A DNA stretch of 64,000 nt from NCBI GenBank assembly GCA_963664625.1, contig OY761541.1, positions 2,187,670-2,251,669 on the forward strand, read 5' to 3'. Position numbers and translations under genes: made by a program. The notes beneath the pieces are model-generated. The model made no database searches and was not told where the DNA came from. It was given only the letters and a program-made list of their open reading frames with translations. Of the stretch, positions 1 through 64,000 are shown piece after piece. This DNA is from Dehalococcoidia bacterium (GTDB taxonomy: Bacteria > Chloroflexota > Dehalococcoidia > Lucifugimonadales > UBA3495). Numbering within the stretch: the first letter of the stretch is position 1; the number at the start of each line of letters is the position of its first letter.

Positions 1-453
1 CCGTTCCACCACCGTCACTTGGGGCACGGAATTGAGAGCGCCCTCCGGAGAAGATGCGTCGGGGTCCACGTCGGCGCTGATAACCAAGCGCTTGCTGTCG
101 GGCGACCAGGAAAACTCGAACACCTTGCCGGGAGCCCCTTCCAGCGCACGGGCTTCGCCGCCGTCGGCGTCCATCACCCATATCTCCCTGCCGCGCTGGT
201 CGTCGGCCCGTAGGAAGGCCAGCGTCTTGCCGTCGGGAGAGAACTTGGCCACCGAGTCCCGGTTGCCCTGTGTGAACTCCCGCGACGACCCGTCGGCCAA
301 GTCCATCATTACGATGCGTGACTTGGCCTCTATGCCGTCGCCGCGGTCCACCCAGGACCGGGTGTACGCCAACCGCCGCCCGTCGGGCGATATGGACGGG
401 TCCGTCGCGCCCCGTAGCTGGTAAACGATGTCCGACGTAATGCGGTTGGTCAT
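1..453 (-). CDS. S9 peptidase / TolB-like beta-propeller protein, N-terminal 151 codons (continues beyond left edge)
   Basis: Hand translation of the reverse strand from ATG (451-453): MTNRITSDIVYQLRGATDPSISPDGRRLAYTRSW..KFSPDGKTLAFLRADDQRGREIWVMDADGG..FSWSPDSKRLVISADVD. It has PD40-like SPDG blades. The frame is open to nt 1, so it is absent from the ORF track. Confidence 0.6.
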   Translation of the reverse strand, partial: MTNRITSDIVYQLRGATDPSISPDGRRLAYTRSWVDRGDGIEAKSRIVMMDLADGSSREFTQGNRDSVAKFSPDGKTLAFLRADDQRGREIWVMDADGGEARALEGAPGKVFEFSWSPDSKRLVISADVDPDASSPEGALNSVPQVTVVER

Positions 454-9749: not shown

Positions 9750-10044
9750 TAGTTGAGCATGGCCTGCGGGGCTGCACCCAAAGCTTTGGCGCGGCCCCCG
9801 CAGGGCAACCCGGAAACCTCCTGAGTCCCTGGAGCCGGACGGCATGGGATCGTATCCAAGTAAGTCGGCTGCCAGGGCTCTAATGAGCGTTTTCTGATTA
9901 TGCCTACTGGCGCTCGTTGGCATCTGTGTTCCAACGGGCGTGTTTCGATTTATCCCTCACTCGGCCCGGGACGGTAAGAACATCGTTTCAGGCTTGGCGC
10001 ATTCCAGCCGACCCCCGGAGTCAGAATCCCGCAGAGGTATTGCC

Positions 10045-43308: not shown

Positions 43309-43426
43309 TCCTGGTGGTTTGAGCGTGGCGGACCCACCCGTTCCCATCCCGAACACGGTAGTGAAACGCCTCAGCGCCGACGATACTGCCTTGGTAACGG
43401 GGTGGGAAAATAGGTCACCGCCGGGG
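43309..43426 (+). rRNA. rrf: 5S ribosomal RNA (stand-alone, no 23S/16S nearby)
   Basis: Conserved core ..CACCCGUUCCCAUCCCGAACACGGUAGUGAAACGCCUCAGCGCCGACGAUACUG..AAUAGGUCACCGCC... Terminal helix CCUGGUGG/CCGCCGGG. Confidence 0.9.
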
Positions 43427-43606: not shown

Positions 43607-43706
43607 CGGCGAATGTTCGTTGGCACACCTCGCGTTGTTCCGAGTCGCAGGCGGCGGAGCAGCAGGACTGAGTAACTCTCCAGCTTCATCACCAGGAGCA
43701 TTTGTT

Positions 43707-46193
43707 ATGGGAAGTCGGTTCGAGAAATTCTCCGAGAGAGCCCGCCGGGTTTTATCGTTGGCGCAGGAGGAAGCCCAGCGATTCAACCATAACTATATTG
43801 GCACCGAGCATATTCTGTTGGGGTTGGTACGGGAGACCGAGGGCGTCGCCGCCCGGGTCCTGTCCAGCCTGACCGTGGACCTCAGCAAGGTTCGCTCTGC
43901 CGTTGAGTTCATCATCGGGCGCGGCGAGAAGCCGGCCCAAGGGGAGATCGGGCTGACCCCGCGCGCCAAGAAGGTAGTGGAGTTGGCCGTCGACGAAGCC
44001 CGCCGGATGAACCACACCTATATAGGGACTGAACACCTGCTGATTGGCTTGCTCCGCGAAGGAGAGGGCGTGGCCGCCGGAGTGCTGGAAAGCTTGGGGG
44101 TCACTCTTGACAAGGTGCGGGCGGAGACCCACCGCATTTTGAGCCACAGCGCCGGCGCCGGTACTCAAGGCTCTCGCACTACTTCCCGTACTCCTACGCT
44201 TGACCAGTTGGGCGTTGACCTGACGGTGGCCGCCAGGTCCGACAAGCTCGACCCGGTTGTGGGACGGGAACAGGAAATCCAGCGGGTGATACAGATACTC
44301 AGCCGCCGCACCAAGAACAACCCCGTCCTGGTGGGCGAACCGGGCGTCGGCAAGACCGCCATCGTAGAGGCTTTGGCCCAGCGCATCGGCGGCGGAGAAG
44401 TGCCGGAGACCCTGCAAGGCAAGCGTCTCGTCACGCTGGACATGGGGGCTTTGGTGGCGGGCACCAAGTACCGCGGCGAGTTCGAGGAACGCCTCAAGAA
44501 GGTCATTGACGAGATCAAGACGTCCGGCAACTGCGTGTTGTTCATCGACGAGGTGCACACCATCGTGGGAGCAGGGGCCGCTGAGGGCGCAGTCGATGCG
44601 TCCAACATCCTCAAGCCGTCGCTGGCCAGGGGAGAGCTCCAGTGCATCGGCGCCACCACCCTGGACGACTATCGCAAGTACGTTGAGAGAGACCCGGCCT
44701 TGGAGCGAAGGTTGCAGCCTGTCCGGGTGGAAGAGCCCACCAGTGACGAGACCATCCAGATTCTCCAGGGCGTCAAGGGACGCTACGAAGACCACCATAA
44801 GGTGGACTTCACTGACGAAGCGATACGGAACGCCGCCGTGTTGGCAGCGCGGTTCATCTCCGACCGCTTCCTTCCTGACAAGGCCATAGACCTGATCGAC
44901 GAGGCCGGCTCCCGTGTACGCCTGCGGGGCAGCGTTACCCCGGCATCGGTGAAAGACGCGATGCAGGTGCTGGAGGAGGTCCGAAAGGAAAAGGACGAGG
45001 CCATCGCCTCTCAGCAGTATGAAGCCGCCGCCGAGTTGCGCGACCGCGAATTGCGCCACAATGCCGACCTGAACAACCTGGAAAAGGAGTGGCAGGAAGG
45101 CCGCGGCAAGGACCGGCCGGTGGTCACCGAAGATGACATCGCCGAAGTGGTGAGCATGTGGACCGGCATCCCGGTGACGCGGCTCGCCCAGGAAGAGACC
45201 GACCGCTTGCTTCGCATGGAGCAGGAAATCCACAAGCGCATCATAGGCCAGGACGAAGCTATCGTCGGCATCGCCAAGTCGGTGCGAAGAGCCAGGGCGG
45301 GCCTGAAAGACCCCCGGCGTCCCATCGGCGTGTTCCTGTTCCTGGGTCCCACCGGCGTCGGCAAGACCGAGTTGGTAAGGGCGATGGCCGAGTTCATGTT
45401 CGGCGACGAAGATACCATGATCCGGCTGGATATGTCCGAGTTCCAGGAGCGGCACACGGTGGCCCGGCTTATCGGCGCTCCTCCGGGTTACGTTGGCTAC
45501 GACGAGGGCGGCCAGTTGACCGAGGGCGTCCGCCGGAAGAACTACTGCGTGGTGTTGCTGGACGAGATAGAGAAGGCCCACCCCGAGGTCTTCAACATCC
45601 TCCTGCAGATTTTCGACGCCGGCACTTTGACCGACGCCAGGGGCCGCAAGGTTGACTTCCGGAACTCCATACTGGTGATGACCAGCAACCTTGGCTCCGA
45701 CCTGATCAAGCGGGAGACCAACCTGGGCTTCAGCATCAAGACCGACCAAGCCCAGACCGAGGAGAGCTCCTACCAGCGGATGAAGGACAAGGTGATGGAC
45801 GAGGTGCGACGCTTCTTCCGTCCCGAGTTCCTCAACCGCATCGACGCTACGGTGGTGTTCCACCAGCTCAACCGGGCGGAAATCCTGTCCATCGTGGAAC
45901 TTATGATAGGACAGGTCCGGAAAGAGCTGGACGAGAAGAAGATTGCCCTTGAGATAACCGAGGCAGCCCGGGAGCACTTGGGAGAAAAGGGGTTCGACCC
46001 GGTAATGGGCGCCCGCCCGTTGCGTAGGCTGATCCAGAACGTGGTCGAAGACAACCTGTCGGAAGAGGTGCTCAGCGGACGGTTGAGCGCCGGGGACACC
46101 GCGTTGATCGATGTGGAAGAGGGAGAGGTCGTGATTCGCAACAAATCAAAAATGGATGCGGAGATACCCGCTGAAGCTGCTACCCCCGCATAG
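43707..46193 (+). CDS. clpC: ATP-dependent Clp protease ATP-binding subunit ClpC
   Basis: ATG 43707 follows AGGAG. Double Clp_N ([40 protein letters not shown]), two AAA+ modules ([18 protein letters not shown]), UVR-like linker. Confidence 0.95.
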
Positions 46194-46234
46194 TCCGTAT
46201 CCCACGTCTTCCCCGTGAAGCTTGCCCCCGGCGC

Positions 46235-46259
46235 GGATTCCCGCGCAGGCGGGAATGAC
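46235..46259 (-). repeat. REP-like repeat, copy 8
   Basis: ggattcccgcgcaggcgggaatgac. Confidence 0.9.
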
Positions 46260-46268
46260 GGTTGACAG

Positions 46269-46298
46269 AAGGCCCCGCCAGCGCGGGGCCTTTCGATT
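46269..46298 (+). terminator. hairpin terminator after clpC (member of a second repeat family)
   Basis: aaggccccgc-cagc-gcggggcctt followed by tcgatt. A near-identical hairpin lies at 52601..52630. Confidence 0.45.
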
Positions 46299-46444
46299 AG
46301 GGCAGGCGGCGGGAAACTATATAGTCTTGCCAAGAGAAGTGCCTGCCCCTGTGGAGACGGGGGTTGCCAAACGAAAAAGGATGATCGGATGGGATAAGTA
46401 ATGCGCCGCCAGGCGCTTCGCGTCCAGAGCCGTGGCTGGAAAGA

Positions 46445-47695
46445 TTGCTGGTTGTATCCCTCTTGGTGATGTTGAACCTGCCGGCAGTCTTGACTGGCGT
46501 CACCGGAATGGACCAGTACGGGTTCTTCACCCTTGACCCGGTGGCGGGCCGGCCGTGGCCGCTGCTTCTTTCCCTTGCGCTGGGCTCCGCCTCCGCCGGA
46601 GCGGGTTATCTCGCCTACCGCCTGTTGCGGCGGCGGGCTTGGTTCGTCGGCAACCGGTACGAGGCTTACCACCACAACGCAGTGGTCTTCGGAACGCCGG
46701 TCGCTGTTGCTTTCCTCCCGGTGTTCTTTCTTACCGGTTACGACAACAAGCCCCTCGTGGTGGGCGTGGCCGGAATCATGGCGACTTCGCTGTGCCTCAT
46801 TGCCGCCCTCAACGACCACAAAATCCGTATCGACGCCGCAATGGCCCGCGCGTTGTTCGTTGTCGGCGCCGCCATCATCCTGGTATTGCTGGCCCTGTCC
46901 GTATCGGGGATGCTGGCGATGTATTTCATTGAGCACTCGCCTTCCGGCGGCAACTTTTTCTGGACTTGGGAGTTCGCTTGGAGCGATTTGGGCTACCCGG
47001 CGGAAGAATTCAGCCAGCGGCATCGAAACGGCCTGTTGGCTTTCGGCGTCGCCGGGACCGTCTACATGACCGTCGCCCTCGGCGCCCCCTTGCTGGGAGA
47101 AGTCCTGAGCTTGTCGCAGCGCAAGCCGGGGAAGGGCGCCGTTCCGGTAACGGCGGCAGCGGCGCTCTCCGAACAGCCGGAGACGTTCCCGGACCTGCCG
47201 GATGCCGTAGAAGCCCAGTCTCAGGACCCGCCGGAGTTTGTGGCCGTGCTGGACGGGCGCGAGGAGGAAATCGACCGGGGCCATTACGAAAACCTGCTTG
47301 CCGAGAAAGACCGCCTTCTGCCCGACACCAAGCTGCTGGTGGACAAAATCTCCGGGGACGTGTTCGCCAAGGTTGGCGGTTCCTGGAGAAAAATTGTTTT
47401 CCGAAAGCGGCAGGCGCCGTTCCAGTTGCTGTGCGTTTACGCCCGGCATCCGGGAAGGCGGTTCACCGTCCAGGAGCTGGAAGCGCTGCTGTGGATGGAG
47501 TTGCCGGAACGGTCGGACTTCAACGTCAACGACCTTTTAGCCCAATTGCAGAGGAAGCCCCACGTCCCCGTCGAGCGTGACGAGGACGGCTCTTACATTC
47601 CCGAATCGGTCAGGGTCTGTTTCCTGGACTACCAGCCCTGCCCTGCCAACGACTCCCCCACCCCGGATGTTTCAATGCCCGCATCGTTATCATAG
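46445..47695 (+). CDS. polytopic membrane protein with C-terminal OmpR/PhoB-type winged-helix DNA-binding domain
   Basis: The N-terminal ~220 aa hold 5-6 hydrophobic helices. The C-terminus FQLLCVYARHPGRRFTVQELEALLWMELPERSDFNVNDLLAQLQRK matches the trans_reg_C pattern (LL..La..pG..vs.eeL...lW....). The start is uncertain (TTG 46445 or ATG 46508). Confidence 0.65.
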   Translation: MLVVSLLVMLNLPAVLTGVTGMDQYGFFTLDPVAGRPWPLLLSLALGSASAGAGYLAYRLLRRRAWFVGNRYEAYHHNAVVFGTPVAVAFLPVFFLTGYDNKPLVVGVAGIMATSLCLIAALNDHKIRIDAAMARALFVVGAAIILVLLALSVSGMLAMYFIEHSPSGGNFFWTWEFAWSDLGYPAEEFSQRHRNGLLAFGVAGTVYMTVALGAPLLGEVLSLSQRKPGKGAVPVTAAAALSEQPETFPDLPDAVEAQSQDPPEFVAVLDGREEEIDRGHYENLLAEKDRLLPDTKLLVDKISGDVFAKVGGSWRKIVFRKRQAPFQLLCVYARHPGRRFTVQELEALLWMELPERSDFNVNDLLAQLQRKPHVPVERDEDGSYIPESVRVCFLDYQPCPANDSPTPDVSMPASLS

Positions 47696-47728
47696 CGTAA
47701 TCATAGAGAAATCATAGTGTAATCATAG
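47689..47728 (+). promoter_or_regulatory. array of four ATCATAG direct repeats at 11-bp spacing (candidate winged-helix operator)
   Basis: ATCATAG at 47689, 47700, 47711 and 47722. The first overlaps the TAG stop of 46445..47695. Confidence 0.55.
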
Positions 47729-48083
47729 TTGTACCCCTCTTTACGGATACTATTACGGTGGTTAGGGTAGAGCTATCAGTCGGGGCTTCCTGGTATGACG
47801 ACGTCGCCTCCGTCGCTATTCCGCGTGTTGCCTCCGCCGTAACGGCCCAGCCCAAGCCCTGGGCCGGGCATTAAGTTTTTGGGATGCGCTTATGCAAGTG
47901 AATCTTGCGCTTAGTGAAACAGTTAGGCTATCAATTGAGAGGGGGAATCCCATTCGATAGCTTCGTTCATTTAATCGAAACCGCCCGCCAAGCCAATGTC
48001 CGCGGGTGACGTCCGCTGCTTCCTCCGGTAAATCGTTGATGCGGGGCGGGTGATTCTACAAGGAGAACGAAGGAGAAAACGTT

Positions 48084-49067
48084 ATGACGACGCAAATCAC
48101 CAACGCGGCCAATGAGTTGTTGGAAGATTGGCTCCGGAAATCGTGGCTGCGACGAATATTCCTGCCGGGGGATTTCTTGGAGCAGGTCGGCGAGGTCGGC
48201 TCGGAGAACTTAGTTTGCCAAAAGACTGCTACCGAGTATCTGACTATGAGCGAGCAGGTGGAGACGAAGACCGTCCGCGGCAGCGACGCCGGCAAATACT
48301 CCACCAACATAAATTACCTGCCGCAAGAATTCAAAAACGAGACCATCAAAATAATCACCAACAATATGGATGTTGGATGCGGCGAGTGTTCCGGAAGAGG
48401 GGCAGTCGCCTGCCCGACCACAATGAGGTGCGGAGAGTGCAAAGGGTCCGGTCAGCGCAGCGGCCGCCGTGAAGAATGCACACAGTGCGATGGAAATGGC
48501 GAAGTCAAGCAAGCCGGCTTTATGAATTTCTCCAAGGAGCGTTGTATGACCTGCTCCGGCTCGGGCAAGCGCATGGTCACTGGCCCTTGCGGGAGATGCG
48601 GCGGGAGAGGCCAGGAAATCTGCAATAAATGCAATGGAAGCGGGTCTGTATCCTGTGGTCAATGCGAGGGCTTGGGCAAGCTGGTGCAGGGCGACTTCAT
48701 AACCAGGAAGTTTTCATGCTTGAAAGAGTTAACGTACCAATTGAGCGGGTTGGGAGAGAATGAGTTCAAGAATGGTCTGGCCGGGGAGCACTTCAAGTCG
48801 ATGGCTGGGGATGAAATACGTCAAGAATTTCAGACTCCAAGCTATGCGGATACGGTGTTGCAGCGGGAGACCGTCCATTCTTATGACGTGCTTTCGCACC
48901 ACTACGTTTACAGGGACGAACCATTCTGCTTGAACCGCATAACTTCCGCCGTCGCCTTGAAGTACGTGGCCTCGGGCGTGCCTTTGTCCAAGGTCAAGGT
49001 TGCCGTGATAGGCGCGTTGGCGTCCGTTGTTGCAGTATCCGCCGCAGCCCTGTTGGTACTGCTCTAG
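48084..49067 (+). CDS. tail-anchored protein with seven DnaJ-type CxxCxGxG zinc knuckles
   Basis: AAGGAG RBS. Knuckles: CGECSGRG, CGECKGSG, CTQCDGNG, CMTCSGSG, CGRCGGRG, CNKCNGSG, CGQCEGLG. C-terminal TM segment VAVIGALASVVAVSAAALLVLL. Confidence 0.75.
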   Translation: MTTQITNAANELLEDWLRKSWLRRIFLPGDFLEQVGEVGSENLVCQKTATEYLTMSEQVETKTVRGSDAGKYSTNINYLPQEFKNETIKIITNNMDVGCGECSGRGAVACPTTMRCGECKGSGQRSGRREECTQCDGNGEVKQAGFMNFSKERCMTCSGSGKRMVTGPCGRCGGRGQEICNKCNGSGSVSCGQCEGLGKLVQGDFITRKFSCLKELTYQLSGLGENEFKNGLAGEHFKSMAGDEIRQEFQTPSYADTVLQRETVHSYDVLSHHYVYRDEPFCLNRITSAVALKYVASGVPLSKVKVAVIGALASVVAVSAAALLVLL

Positions 49068-49350
49068 GGGCGCGGGAATACTTGCCTTGCGGCTTGGGCT
49101 ACTGCCACAGGTCAAGAACTGTGTATGCTGGCGGGCATTCTATCGCCTGCGCCGGAACAGGCGCCATACGGGGGTGGCGAAGCCGGGAGGAGAAGGATGC
49201 ACTGGGCAAAGAGCAGATTTTTCCGGCGCCTCGCAACGGACGGTCCAGCCTACGCGGCAGACGCCCCCGCCGCCTCCTGCCGCGCCCGTCGTCGAAATTA
49301 CCGAGTTGGAGCAGCAGATTATGGAGCGGGTAAACTGAGCCCGCATCGTT

Positions 49351-49368
49351 ATCATAGCCTTATCATAG
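49351..49368 (+). promoter_or_regulatory. two ATCATAG direct repeats at 11-bp spacing (second copy of the operator module)
   Basis: ATCATAG at 49351 and 49362. The identical 20-mer gcccgcatcgttatcatagc occurs at 49339..49358 and 47677..47696. Confidence 0.5.
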
Positions 49369-49525
49369 TCCTACTCCCTTTACTATCGCCGCCAAGGTAG
49401 GGAAGAATTGCCTGAGCCTGTCGCGGCGATTGCGCTTTTGTTGCCGGTTTTCAGGCCCCGGTCTTTCCCCGGAGCGATTTTAGAATCGCGCCTTGGTCCG
49501 GTAATAGAGGTCTTTGGGGGTGTCT

Positions 49526-52132
49526 ATGCGGGTCAATTTCACGCTTGGCGAAACAACCTTTGCTCGACTCTTACGGATGATTGGCATCCTGCCCCTGCTG
49601 CTGGTCATGGCCTTGACTGCCTGCGAAGGCGGCTTATCAACGGTGCGAGATGCCAGCGAGCGCCTCACGCAGCATGAAGATAGTCGGGCCACGGCGCCGG
49701 ATGGAGAGTCCGCCACCGTTGGCGCTCCCACCGGGGACGCGGCTGCTCAGCCCGGTACATCGGAGGCGACGGTAGAACCGGCTCCCGGTTTCACCCCCGG
49801 CGTGGTGACTATCGGCGGCGCGTCGTTCCAGGTGGAGGTGGCGGACACTTCAGCGGCCCGGGAGTCCGTGCCAGAAAGCGCGGGTACATTGTACGTCTTT
49901 GACGAGGAGCAGCTTATAACCTTCTGGATGAAGGATATGAAGTTCCCGGTGGACTGGGTATGGATTGACGCTTCCTGCCAGGTGGTGGACATTACCAGGG
50001 ACGCGCCGGTCCCGGAACCGGGCCAGGCTTCTGCCGACCTGCCGACCTACCAGCCGAAGACGCCCGCGATGTACGTGCTGGAGATAAGCGCCGGGGCGTC
50101 CGCCGCTGCCGGGTTCGGGCCGGGTGATACGGCGGCCTTCACCGGCATTCTGGAAGGCAAGCATGGCTGCCTACCTGCGCTGGCTCCGGGTTCCACGCCG
50201 GGCGATGGCGGACATCCGGGCACCGTGCCAACGCCGGAGCCCGTTGTGAGCCTTCGCCTGACTGTGGGTGAGGTCATCAGCGCCGAGGGCTATCACACCT
50301 GCGGGGTGAAGAGGGACGGCTCCGTAGAATGCTGGGGCAATGATGATTATGACCAGGCCACGCCGCCGGCCGGGAAGTTCGTCTCGGTCAGCGCCGGGGC
50401 GTGGTACACCTGCGGGGTGCGGCGGGAAGACGGCGCCGTGGAATGCTGGGGCAGTAATTTCAAAGACTTGGCCTCGCCGCCGGAGGGGGAGTTCGCCTTG
50501 GTCAGCGCCAGGAATAACTACATCTGCGGAGTGAGACGGCAAGGCACCGTTGCCTGCTGGGGCGTTAATGACGATGTCCAAGCCTCGCCGCCGGAGGGGA
50601 AGTTCGCCTCGGTCAGCGCTGGGAGGGACCACACCTGCGGGGTGAAGGTGGACGGCATCGTCAAGTGCTGGGGATCTGATGCAGATGGCCGGGCCATGCC
50701 GCCGGAGGGGAAGTTCGCCTCGGTCAGCGCTGGGTGGGACCACACCTGCGGGGTGAAGGTGGACGGCGCCGTTGCCTGCTGGGGCGTTAATTACGATGGC
50801 CAAACCGCGCCGCCGGCCGGGGTGGTGTTCGCCACTGTTGAAACCGTTCTTCAGCAGATGCCGGACTGGAGGGCTCTTGGCGACTTCTATAAGGTCACGG
50901 GCGGCAGTGAATGGAAATGGGATAAGCTACGGGAGCAGAATAGAGGATGTTCCCGGTGGGAGGTGGACAATGATAACTCGAACGTTGGCAAGTGGTGCGG
51001 CGTGACCGTTGCGAATGGCCGAGTCACCAGGCTGGAGCTTGCGGGCGTTGGCCTGAACAATGGCATTCGCAAGCTCGGCGTCCTCACAGGGCATCACAAG
51101 CTGGCGATGTTGGGCGACTTGACCGGCCTTACTTACTTGGACCTCTCCGGCAATGACCTGAGCAGCGCCTTGCCGCCGGAACTGGACCAACTCACCGGCC
51201 TCACCCATCTGGACCTGTCGGGCAATGCGTTCCGGGGGGATATAAGCAAGCAGAACCCGGACCATCCCCGCGGCATCAAGTGGCAAAACCTGGTGAACCT
51301 GGTCGAACTGGACTTGTCGGATAACAGGCGCAGCGGCCAGCATGGGTTGAGCGGTCGGATTCCCGCAGAGTTGGGCTCCCTTCCCAATCTAACCGTGCTG
51401 GATCTTTCGGGGAACAATCTGGAGGGCGCGGTGCCGCGGAAGCTGGCCGATCTGGAACTGGACCAGAGCCAATCCAGTCTGGAGGGAAATGCCAAGCTCA
51501 CCATCTGCAATCCGGTGGCGTTTGCATCATTGGGGATTGATTATACGATGAATTGCACGGACAAGGACCGGCTTGAGGAGTTCTACTACACAGCGGGGGG
51601 CAAGCACTGGACGATGAAGGATCGCTGGCTTGAATGGCCCGACAACGAGCCACGGCCAATCCCAATCAGTCAGTGGCACGGCGTCATCACCGCCCCGGAA
51701 GATCCGAACAAGGTTATCGGGCTGTTCTTGCCGAACAACGAACTGGCCGGCGACTTTGATGAGGTGCTGGGGGTGTTGAGCGGGTTTGAAGGCATGAAGT
51801 ACATGGACATCAGCACGAATCCGTTGGTCAACGACGACTTGGTGGATTTCAAGAATAAAATTCTGGGTACCACATGGGGGACACGCTTTAATGCTGGACA
51901 GGGAACATATCTCCTTATCACGGGGGAACCGACAGTCGAAGCCGTGGCGGCATTGACCAGAGATCTGGCCGAACTGTCGCTTCAAATCCCCGAAATCAGC
52001 GGCAATCGGCATCTAAAGAGGCTGTTGTCATTATTATCAGACAGTATTGGCGATGCAACGACTGTGCTTGACTTCGCCGTTGAAGTGGCGCAATACGCGA
52101 GTTGTTCAGCGTGCTGCATTCGGCGGACTTAA
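49526..52132 (+). CDS. lipoprotein with DUF192, RCC1-like repeat and leucine-rich repeat domains
   Basis: Lipobox LLLVMALTAC. DUF192 (GTLYVFDEEQLITFWMKDMKFPVDWVWID..YVLEISAG). Five ~37-aa repeats (H.TCGV..DG.V.CWG......PP.GKF.SVSAG). Plant-type LRRs (LTGLTHLDLSGNAFRGDI, LPNLTVLDLSGNNLEGAVP). Confidence 0.8.
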   Translation: MRVNFTLGETTFARLLRMIGILPLLLVMALTACEGGLSTVRDASERLTQHEDSRATAPDGESATVGAPTGDAAAQPGTSEATVEPAPGFTPGVVTIGGASFQVEVADTSAARESVPESAGTLYVFDEEQLITFWMKDMKFPVDWVWIDASCQVVDITRDAPVPEPGQASADLPTYQPKTPAMYVLEISAGASAAAGFGPGDTAAFTGILEGKHGCLPALAPGSTPGDGGHPGTVPTPEPVVSLRLTVGEVISAEGYHTCGVKRDGSVECWGNDDYDQATPPAGKFVSVSAGAWYTCGVRREDGAVECWGSNFKDLASPPEGEFALVSARNNYICGVRRQGTVACWGVNDDVQASPPEGKFASVSAGRDHTCGVKVDGIVKCWGSDADGRAMPPEGKFASVSAGWDHTCGVKVDGAVACWGVNYDGQTAPPAGVVFATVETVLQQMPDWRALGDFYKVTGGSEWKWDKLREQNRGCSRWEVDNDNSNVGKWCGVTVANGRVTRLELAGVGLNNGIRKLGVLTGHHKLAMLGDLTGLTYLDLSGNDLSSALPPELDQLTGLTHLDLSGNAFRGDISKQNPDHPRGIKWQNLVNLVELDLSDNRRSGQHGLSGRIPAELGSLPNLTVLDLSGNNLEGAVPRKLADLELDQSQSSLEGNAKLTICNPVAFASLGIDYTMNCTDKDRLEEFYYTAGGKHWTMKDRWLEWPDNEPRPIPISQWHGVITAPEDPNKVIGLFLPNNELAGDFDEVLGVLSGFEGMKYMDISTNPLVNDDLVDFKNKILGTTWGTRFNAGQGTYLLITGEPTVEAVAALTRDLAELSLQIPEISGNRHLKRLLSLLSDSIGDATTVLDFAVEVAQYASCSACCIRRT

Positions 52133-52332: not shown

Positions 52333-52435
52333 CTGGGAATGCCCGCGGCCGGGCCGCGTTCTCCGGCTGTTTCTGCCGTGCTATGATTGGCTGTGCGATG
52401 TGGTAATCCCCCGGCCGGGGCAGGCCTGTTTACGC

Positions 52436-52459
52436 GTCATTCCCGTTTCCACGGGAATC
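52436..52459 (+). repeat. REP-like repeat, variant-loop copy 9
   Basis: gtcattcccgtttccacgggaatc. Confidence 0.8.
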
Positions 52460-52503
52460 CATAGGTCGTTCGGCAAGGTAAATTTGCTATTGCGAGGCGG
52501 TGT

Positions 52504-52528
52504 GGATTCCCGCCTTCGCGGGAATGAC
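52504..52528 (-). repeat. REP-like repeat, copy 10
   Basis: ggattcccgccttcgcgggaatgac. Confidence 0.9.
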
Positions 52529-52664
52529 GCCTGCCCTCGTGGAGACGGGGGGTGGACCGGCAAACTAGCGCACACGACTTTGCACAGGTCTTATGACAGA
52601 AGACCCCGCCAGCGCGGGGCCTTCCGTTGTTATAATTGGTCAACCCTGATTGGGAGGTCAACGG

Positions 52665-54059
52665 TTGACTCGCCAAAGAGACCGTGCCCGCTCCGTATTT
52701 TTCTGTCCAACCTGCGGCTTCGAGAGCCCCAAGTGGATGGGGTTCTGTCCCTCTCCGTCCTGTGGTTCGGGCCAACCCTTGGTCGAGGGCAACGCCCGCG
52801 CCAAGGGGGCGACTCATTCCCCCTGGGTGGCTGCTTCGTCGGCGGACTTTCAGGAATTGTCTGAACTGGACTCCGGCGAAGGGCAGCGAATAGAGTTGCC
52901 TTGCCGGGAGCTTAACCGCGCCCTCGGCGGCGGCATTGTCCCCGGTTCGGTGGTGTTGCTGGCGGGCGAGCCGGGAGTGGGCAAGTCCACGCTGCTTCTC
53001 CAAGTCGCCCGGTACATGTCCGAAGCCGGGCAAACGTCGGTCTACGTCGCCGGAGAAGAGTCTCCCCAGCAGATCAAGCTGCGGTCGGAAAGGCTGGGGT
53101 TTTCCGGGCGGGGCGTGTTGTTGTTGTCGGAAACCGACGTGGATACGGTCATCAACAGGCTGGACGAATGCCGGCCGTCCTTGGCGATATTCGACTCCAT
53201 CCAGACCATGTACTGCCCCGACGTCGCCTCGGCGCCGGGCACGGTGGGGCAGGTGCGGGAGGCGGGCTTGCGGCTGATGCGCTGGTCCAAGGCCCGGCAG
53301 GTGCCGGTGGTCTTGGCGGGGCATGTGACCAAGGACGGCTCGGTGGCGGGCCCCAGGACATTGGAGCACATGGTGGACGTGGTCATATCACTGGAATCGC
53401 AGGAATTCGGGTCCCTGCGCCTGCTGCGATGCAGCAAGAACCGCTTCGGTTCCACCTACGAGGTGGGCGTGTTCGAGATGTCCGGGCGCGGGTTGATAGA
53501 AGTGGAGGACCCGTCGAAGGCGATACTGGAGCAGAGGTACGCTCAAGCCGTAGGCGCGGCCTTGACGCCGGTGCTGGAAGGCACCCGCCCGATGGTGCTG
53601 GAAGTCCAAGCATTGACCTCTCCGTCCCACCTTCCCGCTCCGCGTAGAGTCGCCAACGGCTTGGACTTCAACCGCCTGCTGATGCTGATTGCGGTGGCGG
53701 GACGGCGCGGCGGGTTGGACCTGTCGGGACAGGACATTATCGTCAACGTTGCCGGAGGACTGAAGGTCAGCGAACCGGCGGCGGACTTGGCTGTCGTTCT
53801 TGCCATAGGGTCCAGCCTGCACAATCGACCGCTGGACCCGGGGCTGGTGGCCTTTGGGGAACTGGGCCTCGGCGGGGAGGTCCGGTCGGTGCCGCAAGCC
53901 CAGCGGCGTTTACAGGAGGCGCAACGGCTGGGCCTTGGAAAGGCCGTTCTCCCGGCGTCGACGCCGGCGGAGGAAACGAACGGAGTGGGTTTGGACTTAT
54001 CGTTGGCGCGGACCGTGCGCCAAGCGCTTCAAGCGGGACTGGGAGGCCCCCGGCCTTAG
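52665..54059 (+). CDS. radA: DNA repair protein RadA/Sms
   Basis: Zn finger FFCPTCGFESPKWMGFCPSPSCG, Walker A LLAGEPGVGKSTLLLQ, KNRFGST, Lon-like C-terminus. Likely TTG start at 52665 after GGGAGG. Confidence 0.9.
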   Translation: MTRQRDRARSVFFCPTCGFESPKWMGFCPSPSCGSGQPLVEGNARAKGATHSPWVAASSADFQELSELDSGEGQRIELPCRELNRALGGGIVPGSVVLLAGEPGVGKSTLLLQVARYMSEAGQTSVYVAGEESPQQIKLRSERLGFSGRGVLLLSETDVDTVINRLDECRPSLAIFDSIQTMYCPDVASAPGTVGQVREAGLRLMRWSKARQVPVVLAGHVTKDGSVAGPRTLEHMVDVVISLESQEFGSLRLLRCSKNRFGSTYEVGVFEMSGRGLIEVEDPSKAILEQRYAQAVGAALTPVLEGTRPMVLEVQALTSPSHLPAPRRVANGLDFNRLLMLIAVAGRRGGLDLSGQDIIVNVAGGLKVSEPAADLAVVLAIGSSLHNRPLDPGLVAFGELGLGGEVRSVPQAQRRLQEAQRLGLGKAVLPASTPAEETNGVGLDLSLARTVRQALQAGLGGPRP

Positions 54060-63938: not shown

Positions 63939-64000
63939 GGGCCGTTAGCTCAGTTCGGCAGAGCACCGGACTTTTAATCCGGGTGTCGTGGGTTCGATCC
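63939..64000 (+). tRNA. tRNA-Lys (anticodon UUU), 3' end cut by window edge
   Basis: GGGCCGT acceptor, GCTC/GAGC D-stem, CCGGA-CTTTTAA-TCCGG anticodon arm, GTGGG-TTCGATC T-arm start. Confidence 0.85.

Follow-up and report, generated by a model that had tools for sequence, protein, structure and literature searches.

A stretch of 64,000 nt from the genome of a Dehalococcoidia bacterium (contig OY761541.1; hereafter the window) raises the question of why one heptamer, ATCATAG, is repeated at a strict spacing ahead of two genes, one for a zinc-finger (Zn-finger) protein and the other for a lipoprotein with RCC1 and leucine-rich (LRR) repeats, and which protein might read it. The first repeat of the first array contains the stop codon of an open reading frame (ORF) that we call F2. 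We propose that both arrays are operators of a new membrane-tethered one-component regulator with a winged helix-turn-helix (wHTH) domain, namely the F2 protein, which would bind them and control a local regulon, and we give this interpretation a probability of roughly two in three.

The repeats themselves are unambiguous. On the forward strand ATCATAG starts at 47689, 47700, 47711 and 47722 (module 1) and again at 49351 and 49362 (module 2), with a period of 11 bp in both arrays. The same 20-mer, GCCCGCATCGTTATCATAGC, heads each array, at 47677 and 49339, stretches of the form CTTTAC..TAT follow each of them, and the TAG stop codon of the ORF at 46445-47695 is part of repeat 1. The first-pass annotation, which had reported the positions and their phasing, the identical 20-mer, the segments ccctctttac / tccctttac .. 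tactat and the stop codon inside the first repeat, was accurate in all these respects, but ATCATAG itself turned out to be a local variant of a motif whose family consensus is ATCCTAG. In the window the heptamer occurs 14 times against 2.63 expected, and the eight copies outside the arrays are solitary and lie in unrelated settings, mostly within long ORFs. The phased dimer ATCATAG-N4-ATCATAG is confined to modules 1 and 2 within the window, even if three mismatches are allowed. The two copies of the module are 93% identical across 30 nt, and their local alignment scores 50, compared with a maximum of 30 among 200 shuffles.

Such an array could be a neutral 11-bp minisatellite, produced by replication slippage and duplicated by chance. 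Tandem Repeats Finder indeed reports the segment 47689-47729 as an array of period 11 (3.7 copies, 86% matches), and 11-bp tandem repeats with a similar core are common in unrelated metagenome contigs. In those contigs, however, it is the whole 11-mer that is repeated, whereas the four heptamer cores of module 1 are identical and its three spacers are unlike one another (cgta, agaa, tgta), which argues against a fresh slippage product. Moreover, position, orientation and core are conserved beside F2 across distant metagenome-assembled genomes (MAGs) and are absent elsewhere, so that we hold slippage to be highly improbable.

This conservation emerged from the comparison of orthologous loci that the first-pass annotation had recommended. 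We retrieved 50 loci around F2 relatives, three around close homologues and then four more, and scanned this material, about 1.25 Mb of related Dehalococcoidia loci, with a position weight matrix (PWM) for two adjacent units, at a threshold above the best score obtained in shuffled loci (19.5 bits). Phased heptamers are conserved beside the F2 family across Dehalococcoidia: right after the stop codon of the F2 orthologues stand two to four direct repeats with an 11-bp period, whose heptamer is ATCCTAG or, in part of the lineages, ATCATAG, and the unit consensus is aTATCCTAGcy. The scan yielded 33 arrays in L001-L053 and the window, and five further arrays in L174, L175, L177 and L178. All 38 lie no more than about 2.1 kb from an F2 gene, most of them at most 300 bp from its stop or start, and none was found away from F2 in the sequence scanned. 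Most arrays sit just 3' of the F2 stop; six loci carry an additional array just 5' of the F2 start, and in three loci an array lies about 2 kb upstream on the opposite strand, in L014 ahead of a hydrolase gene. In one locus (L022) an extra gene, of family F23, stands between F2 and the array. Among the clade-A loci, whose F2 shares an identity of about 50% or more with the query, 27 of 29 have an array, and the heptamer core is kept across F2 proteins that are just 50-73% identical.

Adjacency to F2 does not by itself make F2 the binder. Direct repeats of 7 bp with 4-bp spacers fit any protein of the OmpR/PhoB type, and a canonical response regulator of that family encoded elsewhere, or some other protein, could bind the arrays, with F2 and its neighbours as the targets; a response-regulator gene (F11) does stand directly upstream of F2 in L013-L015 and in clade B. 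A control search that started from the Zn-finger protein bears on this possibility. Two of the loci that it returned, L177 and L178, have F2 adjacent and an array after the F2 stop, but L179 and L180 (with a bPH-Zn-finger gene pair) and L181 (with the Zn-finger gene), which have no F2 within 8 kb, contain no array. The repeats thus track the regulator gene and not the target genes. F11, furthermore, looks like a NarL/LuxR-type regulator, as read from its sequence, and is missing from most of the array-bearing loci, and the heptamer variant tends to change along with the recognition helix of F2: helices with SDFF occur with ATCCTAG only, those with NDLL (the window) and SDIF (L005, L006, L021, L174) with ATCATAG units. 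This co-variation, though weak, favours F2 as the reader. Taking these points together, we consider a binder other than F2 unlikely.

Three peculiarities of individual arrays may be recorded here. In L002, L003, L004 and L022 a second, inverted two-unit array (9912-9933, reverse strand) lies between the promoter of the upstream array and the start codon of F2; its place would be within the leader, which makes it a possible looping site or autoregulatory operator, and it is not followed by the promoter sequence conserved after other arrays. In the close relative L051 (10819-14000) two insertion sequence (IS) copies (HTH + DDE_3) in opposite orientation lie between an F2 gene cut to 272 aa and the last array unit, and the remaining array and promoter are about 2.9 kb away from the truncated gene. 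Finally, five metagenome contigs with about 41-55% GC (L074, L114, L118, L126, L135) carry arrays of the unit TATCCTATGCG followed by CTGTTTT, with no F2 relative nearby; these may serve some other regulator as a comparable operator, or be ordinary tandem repeats.

What kind of protein is F2? Its product of 416 aa was assigned to no family of Pfam or NCBIfam. A large protein collection contains 94 homologues, all of them unannotated and none with a Pfam domain, and an exhaustive profile search found 220 representatives among 1.84 billion proteins, the genome matches being Dehalococcoidia/Chloroflexi MAGs throughout. In the full-length AlphaFold2 model, computed with 42 family members as input (mean predicted local distance difference test, pLDDT, 81.7), residues 2-225 form about five or six transmembrane helices, followed by a disordered linker (229-258) and a C-terminal domain with pLDDT of 86-94, whose secondary structure comprises strand 297-317, helices 323-334, 342-352 and 361-369, and strand 377-384. 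Modelled alone, the domain reaches a pLDDT of 91.7 and a predicted template modelling score of 0.86, with corresponding elements at 34-54 (strand), 60-71, 79-89 and 98-107 (helices) and 114-121 (strand). The predicted model displays what characterizes the OmpR/PhoB fold, that is an N-terminal antiparallel beta-sheet, a three-helix bundle with recognition helix alpha3 (here FNVNDLLAQLQ) and a C-terminal beta-hairpin wing. In Foldseek searches of the PDB with both the full-length and the domain model, the leading matches are DNA-binding domains of the OmpR/PhoB family: BaeR (E=1.8e-3), CovR (target-normalised TM 0.72, root-mean-square deviation 2.6 Å over 100 columns), AdeR (TM 0.69) and NsrR (0.71), as well as ToxR, CadC, PhoB, PhoP and OmpR (OmpR-C, 1opc). 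Matches outside this family have a probability below 0.1 only.

The winged helix that had been attributed to the gene upstream of the first array is therefore borne out at the level of the fold, by the quality of the domain model and by the matches to BaeR, CovR, AdeR, ToxR, CadC, PhoB and PhoP, but not at the Pfam threshold, to which we return below. F2 does not qualify as a response regulator. It has no match in Pfam or NCBIfam to Response_reg, the receiver domain with the phospho-acceptor Asp, and in the model the place of the would-be receiver, the N-terminal 225 residues, is taken by transmembrane helices. Judging from its model, F2 appears to be a one-component protein integrated in the membrane, whose C-terminus carries a divergent winged helix of the OmpR kind.

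The membrane module of F2 contains an invariant loop, GNFFWxWEFxWSDLGYPxEEF. In remoter relatives the same module is found at the C-terminus, and 11 of the 13 relatives tested (440-493 aa) have an N-terminal HTH of the XRE type, which indicates that the module accompanies DNA-binding domains. On this ground the module may serve transcription factors of Chloroflexota as a general sensor in the membrane, with a set of small envelope, Zn-finger and RCC1/LRR proteins under its control. One remote relative of 836 aa (P0235, among P0140-P0237) has a phage-integrase domain in place of the XRE-type HTH. As to the beginning of the F2 gene in the window, the first canonical start is the TTG at 46445, and the 20 in-frame codons 5' of it (46385-46444) read ...RPEPWLERLL, a sequence with homology to the N-terminal ends of the F2 orthologues; no ATG, GTG or TTG occurs between the stop at 46382 and 46445. 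The gene may have a rare start codon or a shortened N-terminus.

The arrays stand in a fixed relation to promoter-like hexamers. When orthologous modules are aligned at the last repeat, they have in common the sequence CCAcTTTCGGTTTAy, a -35-like hexamer (TTTACA, TTTATA or TTCACA) at +11..17 and -10-like hexamers (TAATAA, TACTAT, TATGCT, CATAGT) at +33..41. In the window as in the orthologues, the distance from the end of the last repeat is 10-11 nt to a -35-like TTTACN and about 34 nt to the -10-like hexamer, so the repeats would occupy roughly -48 to -92 of the putative promoter, an upstream position of the OmpR type. In those loci where the next gene was identified, the array has the orientation of that gene. 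The arrays can accordingly be said to stand in front of transcription units, as had been suggested, and the suggested likeness to the Pho box holds for the 7-bp repeats with their 4-bp spacer. It does not extend to the place of the box: the Pho box stands in for the -35 element and is separated by about 10 bp from the -10 element downstream of it, but the arrays lie upstream of the -35-like hexamer. An RNA element in the leaders, such as a riboswitch or a small RNA, was considered and rejected. Rfam gave no match at the gathering threshold (the sole match with E<=1 had E=0.48, as expected by chance), and the leader at 47775-48090 (316 nt) folds no better than its shuffles (z=-0.27).

A short phased repeat might also be an element of a replication origin, i.e. 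iterons or a cluster of DnaA boxes. The TATCC of the unit resembles the start of the DnaA box TTATCCACA, and low-affinity DnaA sites can show 11-bp phasing. Nevertheless, by manual comparison each unit mismatches TTATCCACA at four of nine positions, the cumulative GC skew climbs steadily through the region with no switch, and the gene maps and tables of called genes place no dnaA, dnaN or rep gene beside the arrays, the neighbours in the window being clpC, radA and genes of envelope proteins. Since the arrays moreover accompany F2 through many genomic contexts, we give an origin function practically no credence.

The genes that follow the arrays point to the cell envelope. In the relatives the usual gene after the array encodes a small membrane protein, either of about 180 aa (family F18, annotated as bPH_2 in the precomputed annotation of L174, L179 and L180), of about 100 aa, or of another kind, and the Zn-finger and RCC1/LRR genes are often next after it. 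Orthologues of the Zn-finger protein adjoin F2 in L009-L011, L017, L018, L177 and L178, and relatives of the RCC1-LRR protein (family F3) occur in the same neighbourhood in 19 loci. In the window both genes downstream of the arrays are found where the first-pass annotation had placed them (48084; 49514/49526), but F18, the usual first target, is absent, and module 1 leads to the Zn-finger gene after about 350 nt. A remnant of F18 in this interval was sought, and no significant match was obtained. Two observations concern the target proteins as such. The RCC1 part of the lipoprotein gene (50277-50821) consists of five tandem repeats at the DNA level, 111-114 bp long and 63-80% identical. Unrelated small membrane proteins encoded downstream of the arrays, F18 in L009-L011, L019, L029 and L044 and F60 in L001-L004 and L022, share a C-terminal tail of the form PPRV(T/E)L(R/V)(E/D) or RARVQ(L/V)GN, which may be a sorting, processing or recognition tag.

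The features of the locus are collected in Table 1, which includes two gene remnants between the Zn-finger gene and module 2. The first derives from family F10, which is Uma2 in L052. The second, which ends 3 nt before module 2, has shorter matches also in L029, L044 and L001.

Table 1. Coordinates of the features of the F2 locus in the window
Feature	Coordinates	Strand	Basis and remarks
Gene F2, proposed regulator: polytopic membrane module at the N-terminus, then disordered linker and, at the C-terminus, OmpR/PhoB-like winged helix (predicted)	46445..47695	+	ORF, AlphaFold2, Foldseek
Coding region of the predicted winged-helix core (beta-sheet, alpha1-alpha3, wing hairpin)	47327..47644	+	AlphaFold2 secondary structure
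20-mer common to both modules	47677..47696	+	Includes repeat 1 and the last four sense codons and stop of F2
Module 1 array, 4 x ATCATAG; proposed operator or upstream activating sequence	47689..47728	+	PWM dimer 26.5 bits vs shuffle maximum 19.5
Putative module 1 promoter	47740..47768	+	TTTACG 47740-47745, 17-nt spacer, TAGGGT 47763-47768; offsets +12..17 and +35..40, as in orthologues
Protein with a Zn finger of the DnaJ CXXCXGXG type, its C-terminal segment hydrophobic and probably membrane-spanning; first gene after module 1	48084..49067	+	PF00684, E=3.4e-9
Remnant of Uma2-family C-terminus, relic of ancestral gene order	49143..49187	-	tblastn, 15 aa, 87-100% identity to F10
Fragment similar to a short part of the ORFs located after the small membrane-protein genes of relatives	49291..49335	+	tblastn, 15 aa, 93% to L019 11895-12425
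Module 2, 20-mer and 2 x ATCATAG at 11-bp period	49339..49368	+	PWM dimer 28.9 bits
Putative module 2 promoter	49379..49408	+	TTTACT 49379-49384, AAGAAT 49403-49408; offsets +11..16 and +35..40, as in orthologues
DUF192 + RCC1-repeat + LRR protein with signal peptide and lipobox-like LTAC; after module 2	49514..52132	+	Pfam RCC1_2, DUF192, LRR

Direct repeats on both sides of the Zn-finger gene, together with the gene remnants that adjoin module 2 and testify to a rearrangement of the locus, might suggest that the arrays are boundaries of recombination or of a mobile element, delimiting a 1662-bp Zn-finger cassette or marking hot spots of rearrangement, with no role in transcription. The gene order around F2 is fluid, and the DDE_3 elements between F2 and the rest of the array in L051 and the intervening gene in L022 would agree with such an origin. 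Most loci, however, have no recombinase or transposase at the arrays, and most have a single array, so that nothing is flanked. The number of units varies from two to four, yet their phasing and their distance to the -35-like hexamer are constant, as expected for a promoter module, and the conservation of the heptamer core among divergent F2 proteins also speaks against mere boundaries. We regard this explanation as very unlikely. The history of module 2 can be read from its beginning, which corresponds to the last 12 nt of the F2 coding sequence. Module 2 must therefore be the secondary copy: it is a lineage-specific duplicate of module 1, placed by rearrangement before the RCC1-LRR lipoprotein gene, and its history is one of regulon growth by promoter duplication. 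Growth of the same kind is indicated in L005, L021 and L174, in which the upstream and downstream arrays have a common post-array sequence.

Several points weigh against the proposal that F2 reads these arrays. Its binding to them is argued from adjacency and by analogy. The comparison covered 6-10 kb on either side of F2 or Zn-finger homologues, and the PWM was trained on arrays that it later found, with shuffles and the rest of the loci serving as controls. Clade-B loci, with F2 at about 40% identity, are without clear arrays: a de novo search for repeats of 10 or 11 bp around their F2 genes gave nothing convincing. They do keep a weaker match to CTATCCTAC-N4-ATTCnGG downstream of F2, which for about half of these loci falls in the top 1% of scores, as the best or nearly the best of the locus. 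L009 and L010, which combine NDLF with ATCCTAG, are an exception to the co-variation. A motif-first scan of metagenome contigs with ATCMTADNNNNATCMTADNNNNAWCMTAD returned at least 120 contigs, mostly of low GC and with generic perfect 11-bp tandem repeats, and among the contigs listed none encodes an F2 relative, as judged by tblastn and a hidden Markov model (HMM); the scan has no bearing on the regulon. With respect to the protein, F2 stays below the threshold of Trans_reg_C (PF00486; 12.8 bits for residues 325-371 vs a cut-off of 26.2, E=0.13), just 2 of the 42 family members have a match of any strength to this model, and phmmer and profile matches in the PDB to the DNA-binding domains of DrRRA, CssR and ArlR have E of 0.4-1.1; these sequence matches, weak as they are, point the same way as the predicted fold, to the OmpR/PhoB type. 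With respect to the promoters, a strict sigma-70 scan of 46100-49700 returned none, so that they are putative and placed solely by the comparative offsets; the -10 candidates of the window (TAGGGT, AAGAAT) are poor, and the module 1 promoter would imply a leader of about 310 nt ahead of the Zn-finger gene. Finally, a phased-dimer search finds no array upstream of F2 itself in the window.

If the arrays are nonetheless operators of F2, the following scenario can be envisaged. The N-terminal polytopic module would hold F2 in the membrane, presumably as a sensor or an anchor, and could respond to a signal from the envelope or the membrane. The cytoplasmic winged helices would bind head-to-tail on a single face of the DNA, one monomer per 11-bp unit, and the resulting oligomer would cover the interval between roughly -48 and -92 of a promoter of the sigma-70 type, in which the -35-like hexamer begins 11-12 nt beyond the last repeat. 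Bound F2 would then control the adjacent promoter, as we propose by analogy with PhoB, OmpR and ToxR, and the position of the arrays tips the balance modestly towards activation rather than repression. The targets would be neighbouring genes of envelope proteins, which in the relatives include bPH-like and other small membrane proteins, the Zn-finger membrane protein and RCC1/LRR lipoproteins, with F2 itself as a further probable target in several of them. In the present genome module 1 would drive the Zn-finger gene and module 2 would serve the RCC1-LRR lipoprotein gene.

The local placement of the sites would suit a membrane-tethered factor. It is tempting to go further and to regard F2 as an undescribed class of regulators, composed of a polytopic module and a C-terminal OmpR-like wHTH and acting only within a kilobase or two of their own gene, a generalization that we consider about as probable as its opposite. 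As a rule no more than about 100 bp separate the start of the proposed operator from the regulator's stop codon, which it overlaps in the window. The membrane-tethered protein might thus capture its target DNA during the transcription, translation and membrane insertion of its own gene (transertion).

How does this arrangement compare with systems already described? Direct repeats with an 11-bp period are the known architecture of the sites of PhoB, PhoP, PmrA, WalR and GlnR. The arrays resemble the Pho box of Escherichia coli and the sites of the other four regulators in their 7-bp direct repeats with 4-bp spacers located directly upstream of a promoter, winged helices of the OmpR/PhoB type read their sites head-to-tail, and PhoB effector domains are among the fold matches of F2. 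On the other hand, PhoB, a response regulator, is soluble and contains a receiver domain, whereas F2 is, according to its model, embedded in the membrane and has no receiver domain; the arrays of the window end upstream of the -35-like hexamer, the sequence of the heptamer is unrelated to that of the Pho box, and F2 remains below the Pfam threshold. OmpR at ompF and ompC offers a parallel for several tandem sites at about -40 to -100, upstream of the -35 element in a class I-like arrangement, but it is a phosphorylated soluble response regulator that recognizes half-sites of roughly 10 bp in 20-bp boxes, unlike the two to four units of 11 bp considered here and their presumably membrane-tethered regulator.

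Parallels to the protein may be found in ToxR, CadC and TcpP, which, as the model suggests for F2, combine an OmpR-like wHTH and a membrane segment in one polypeptide and dispense with a phosphorelay. ToxR occupies multiple sites near the promoter, binding in tandem with a spacing of about one DNA turn, and tethers the DNA to the membrane (PMC10629549). In ToxR and CadC, however, an N-terminal wHTH is followed by a single transmembrane helix and a periplasmic sensor, and in F2 the order is reversed, with the polytopic module (2-225) first, then the linker, and the wHTH at the C-terminus. Unlike these proteins, F2 belongs to a family essentially confined to Dehalococcoidia MAGs, and it has no detectable sequence relationship to them outside the wHTH. 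The membrane-bound XRE-HTH regulators like BcrR, with an N-terminal HTH and a C-terminal transmembrane domain, have the architecture of the remote relatives of F2 (HTH_31/HTH_3), but F2 carries its wHTH at the opposite end, and the likeness meant here is one of architecture. In the literature on the heptamer with its direct repeat, and on membrane-bound OmpR-like regulators with a C-terminal DNA-binding domain, we found nothing on this system.

The surroundings of the locus also deserve mention. The F2, Zn-finger and RCC1-LRR genes form a 6.4-kb block between clpC (43620-46193) and radA (52650-54059), which are neighbours in many bacteria, e.g. in the clpC operon of Bacillus subtilis. F2 orthologues are found elsewhere in differing contexts, e.g. 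near PEP-mutase, Uma2 and luciferase-like genes. As the block splits clpC from radA and the contexts of its orthologues differ, it looks inserted or relocated. We considered a mobile island bounded by the repeats at 46229-46366 and 52434-52630 and rejected it, because these flanking repeats belong to a family of 12 hairpins resembling repetitive extragenic palindromic (REP) elements and are not element ends. The REP-like hairpin, GGATTCCCGC-N4-GCGGGAATGAC, has 12 copies in the window (2185-58417) against 0 expected, with copies on both sides of the block from F2 to the RCC1/LRR gene, e.g. at 46235-46259, 52436-52460 and 52504-52528; a related hairpin, cgtcattccagcgaaagcaggaacccgg, occurs in the leaders downstream of the arrays in L052 and L053. 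Upstream of clpC, at a distance of about 190 nt, a 5S rRNA gene (43310-43426, 87.8 bits) stands by itself. No tRNA genes were found by a tRNA scan of the window, and the Rfam search indicated one tRNA cut by the window end at 63939.

To our knowledge, very little has been established about the control of transcription in Dehalococcoidia and the uncultured Chloroflexota related to them. An unannotated family of regulators and its probable operator can here be matched as a pair from sequence alone, and with them go the consensus aTATCCTAGcy, repeated every 11 bp, a promoter geometry and a limited set of targets. A protein family for which neither Pfam nor NCBIfam has a model thereby receives a proposed function, and a conspicuous repeat a probable explanation. 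We hope that the proposal will be put to the test, for which the soluble C-terminal domain and short oligonucleotides would be sufficient and no culture of the organism would be required. The architecture of the operator is classical; the proposed regulator comes from an unannotated family, its membrane topology is reversed, which is unusual, and its regulon would be local. With its membrane module first and its winged helix last, and with its sites close to its own gene, F2 would widen the known range of membrane-tethered transcription factors, and the system appears well suited to asking how such factors find their DNA.

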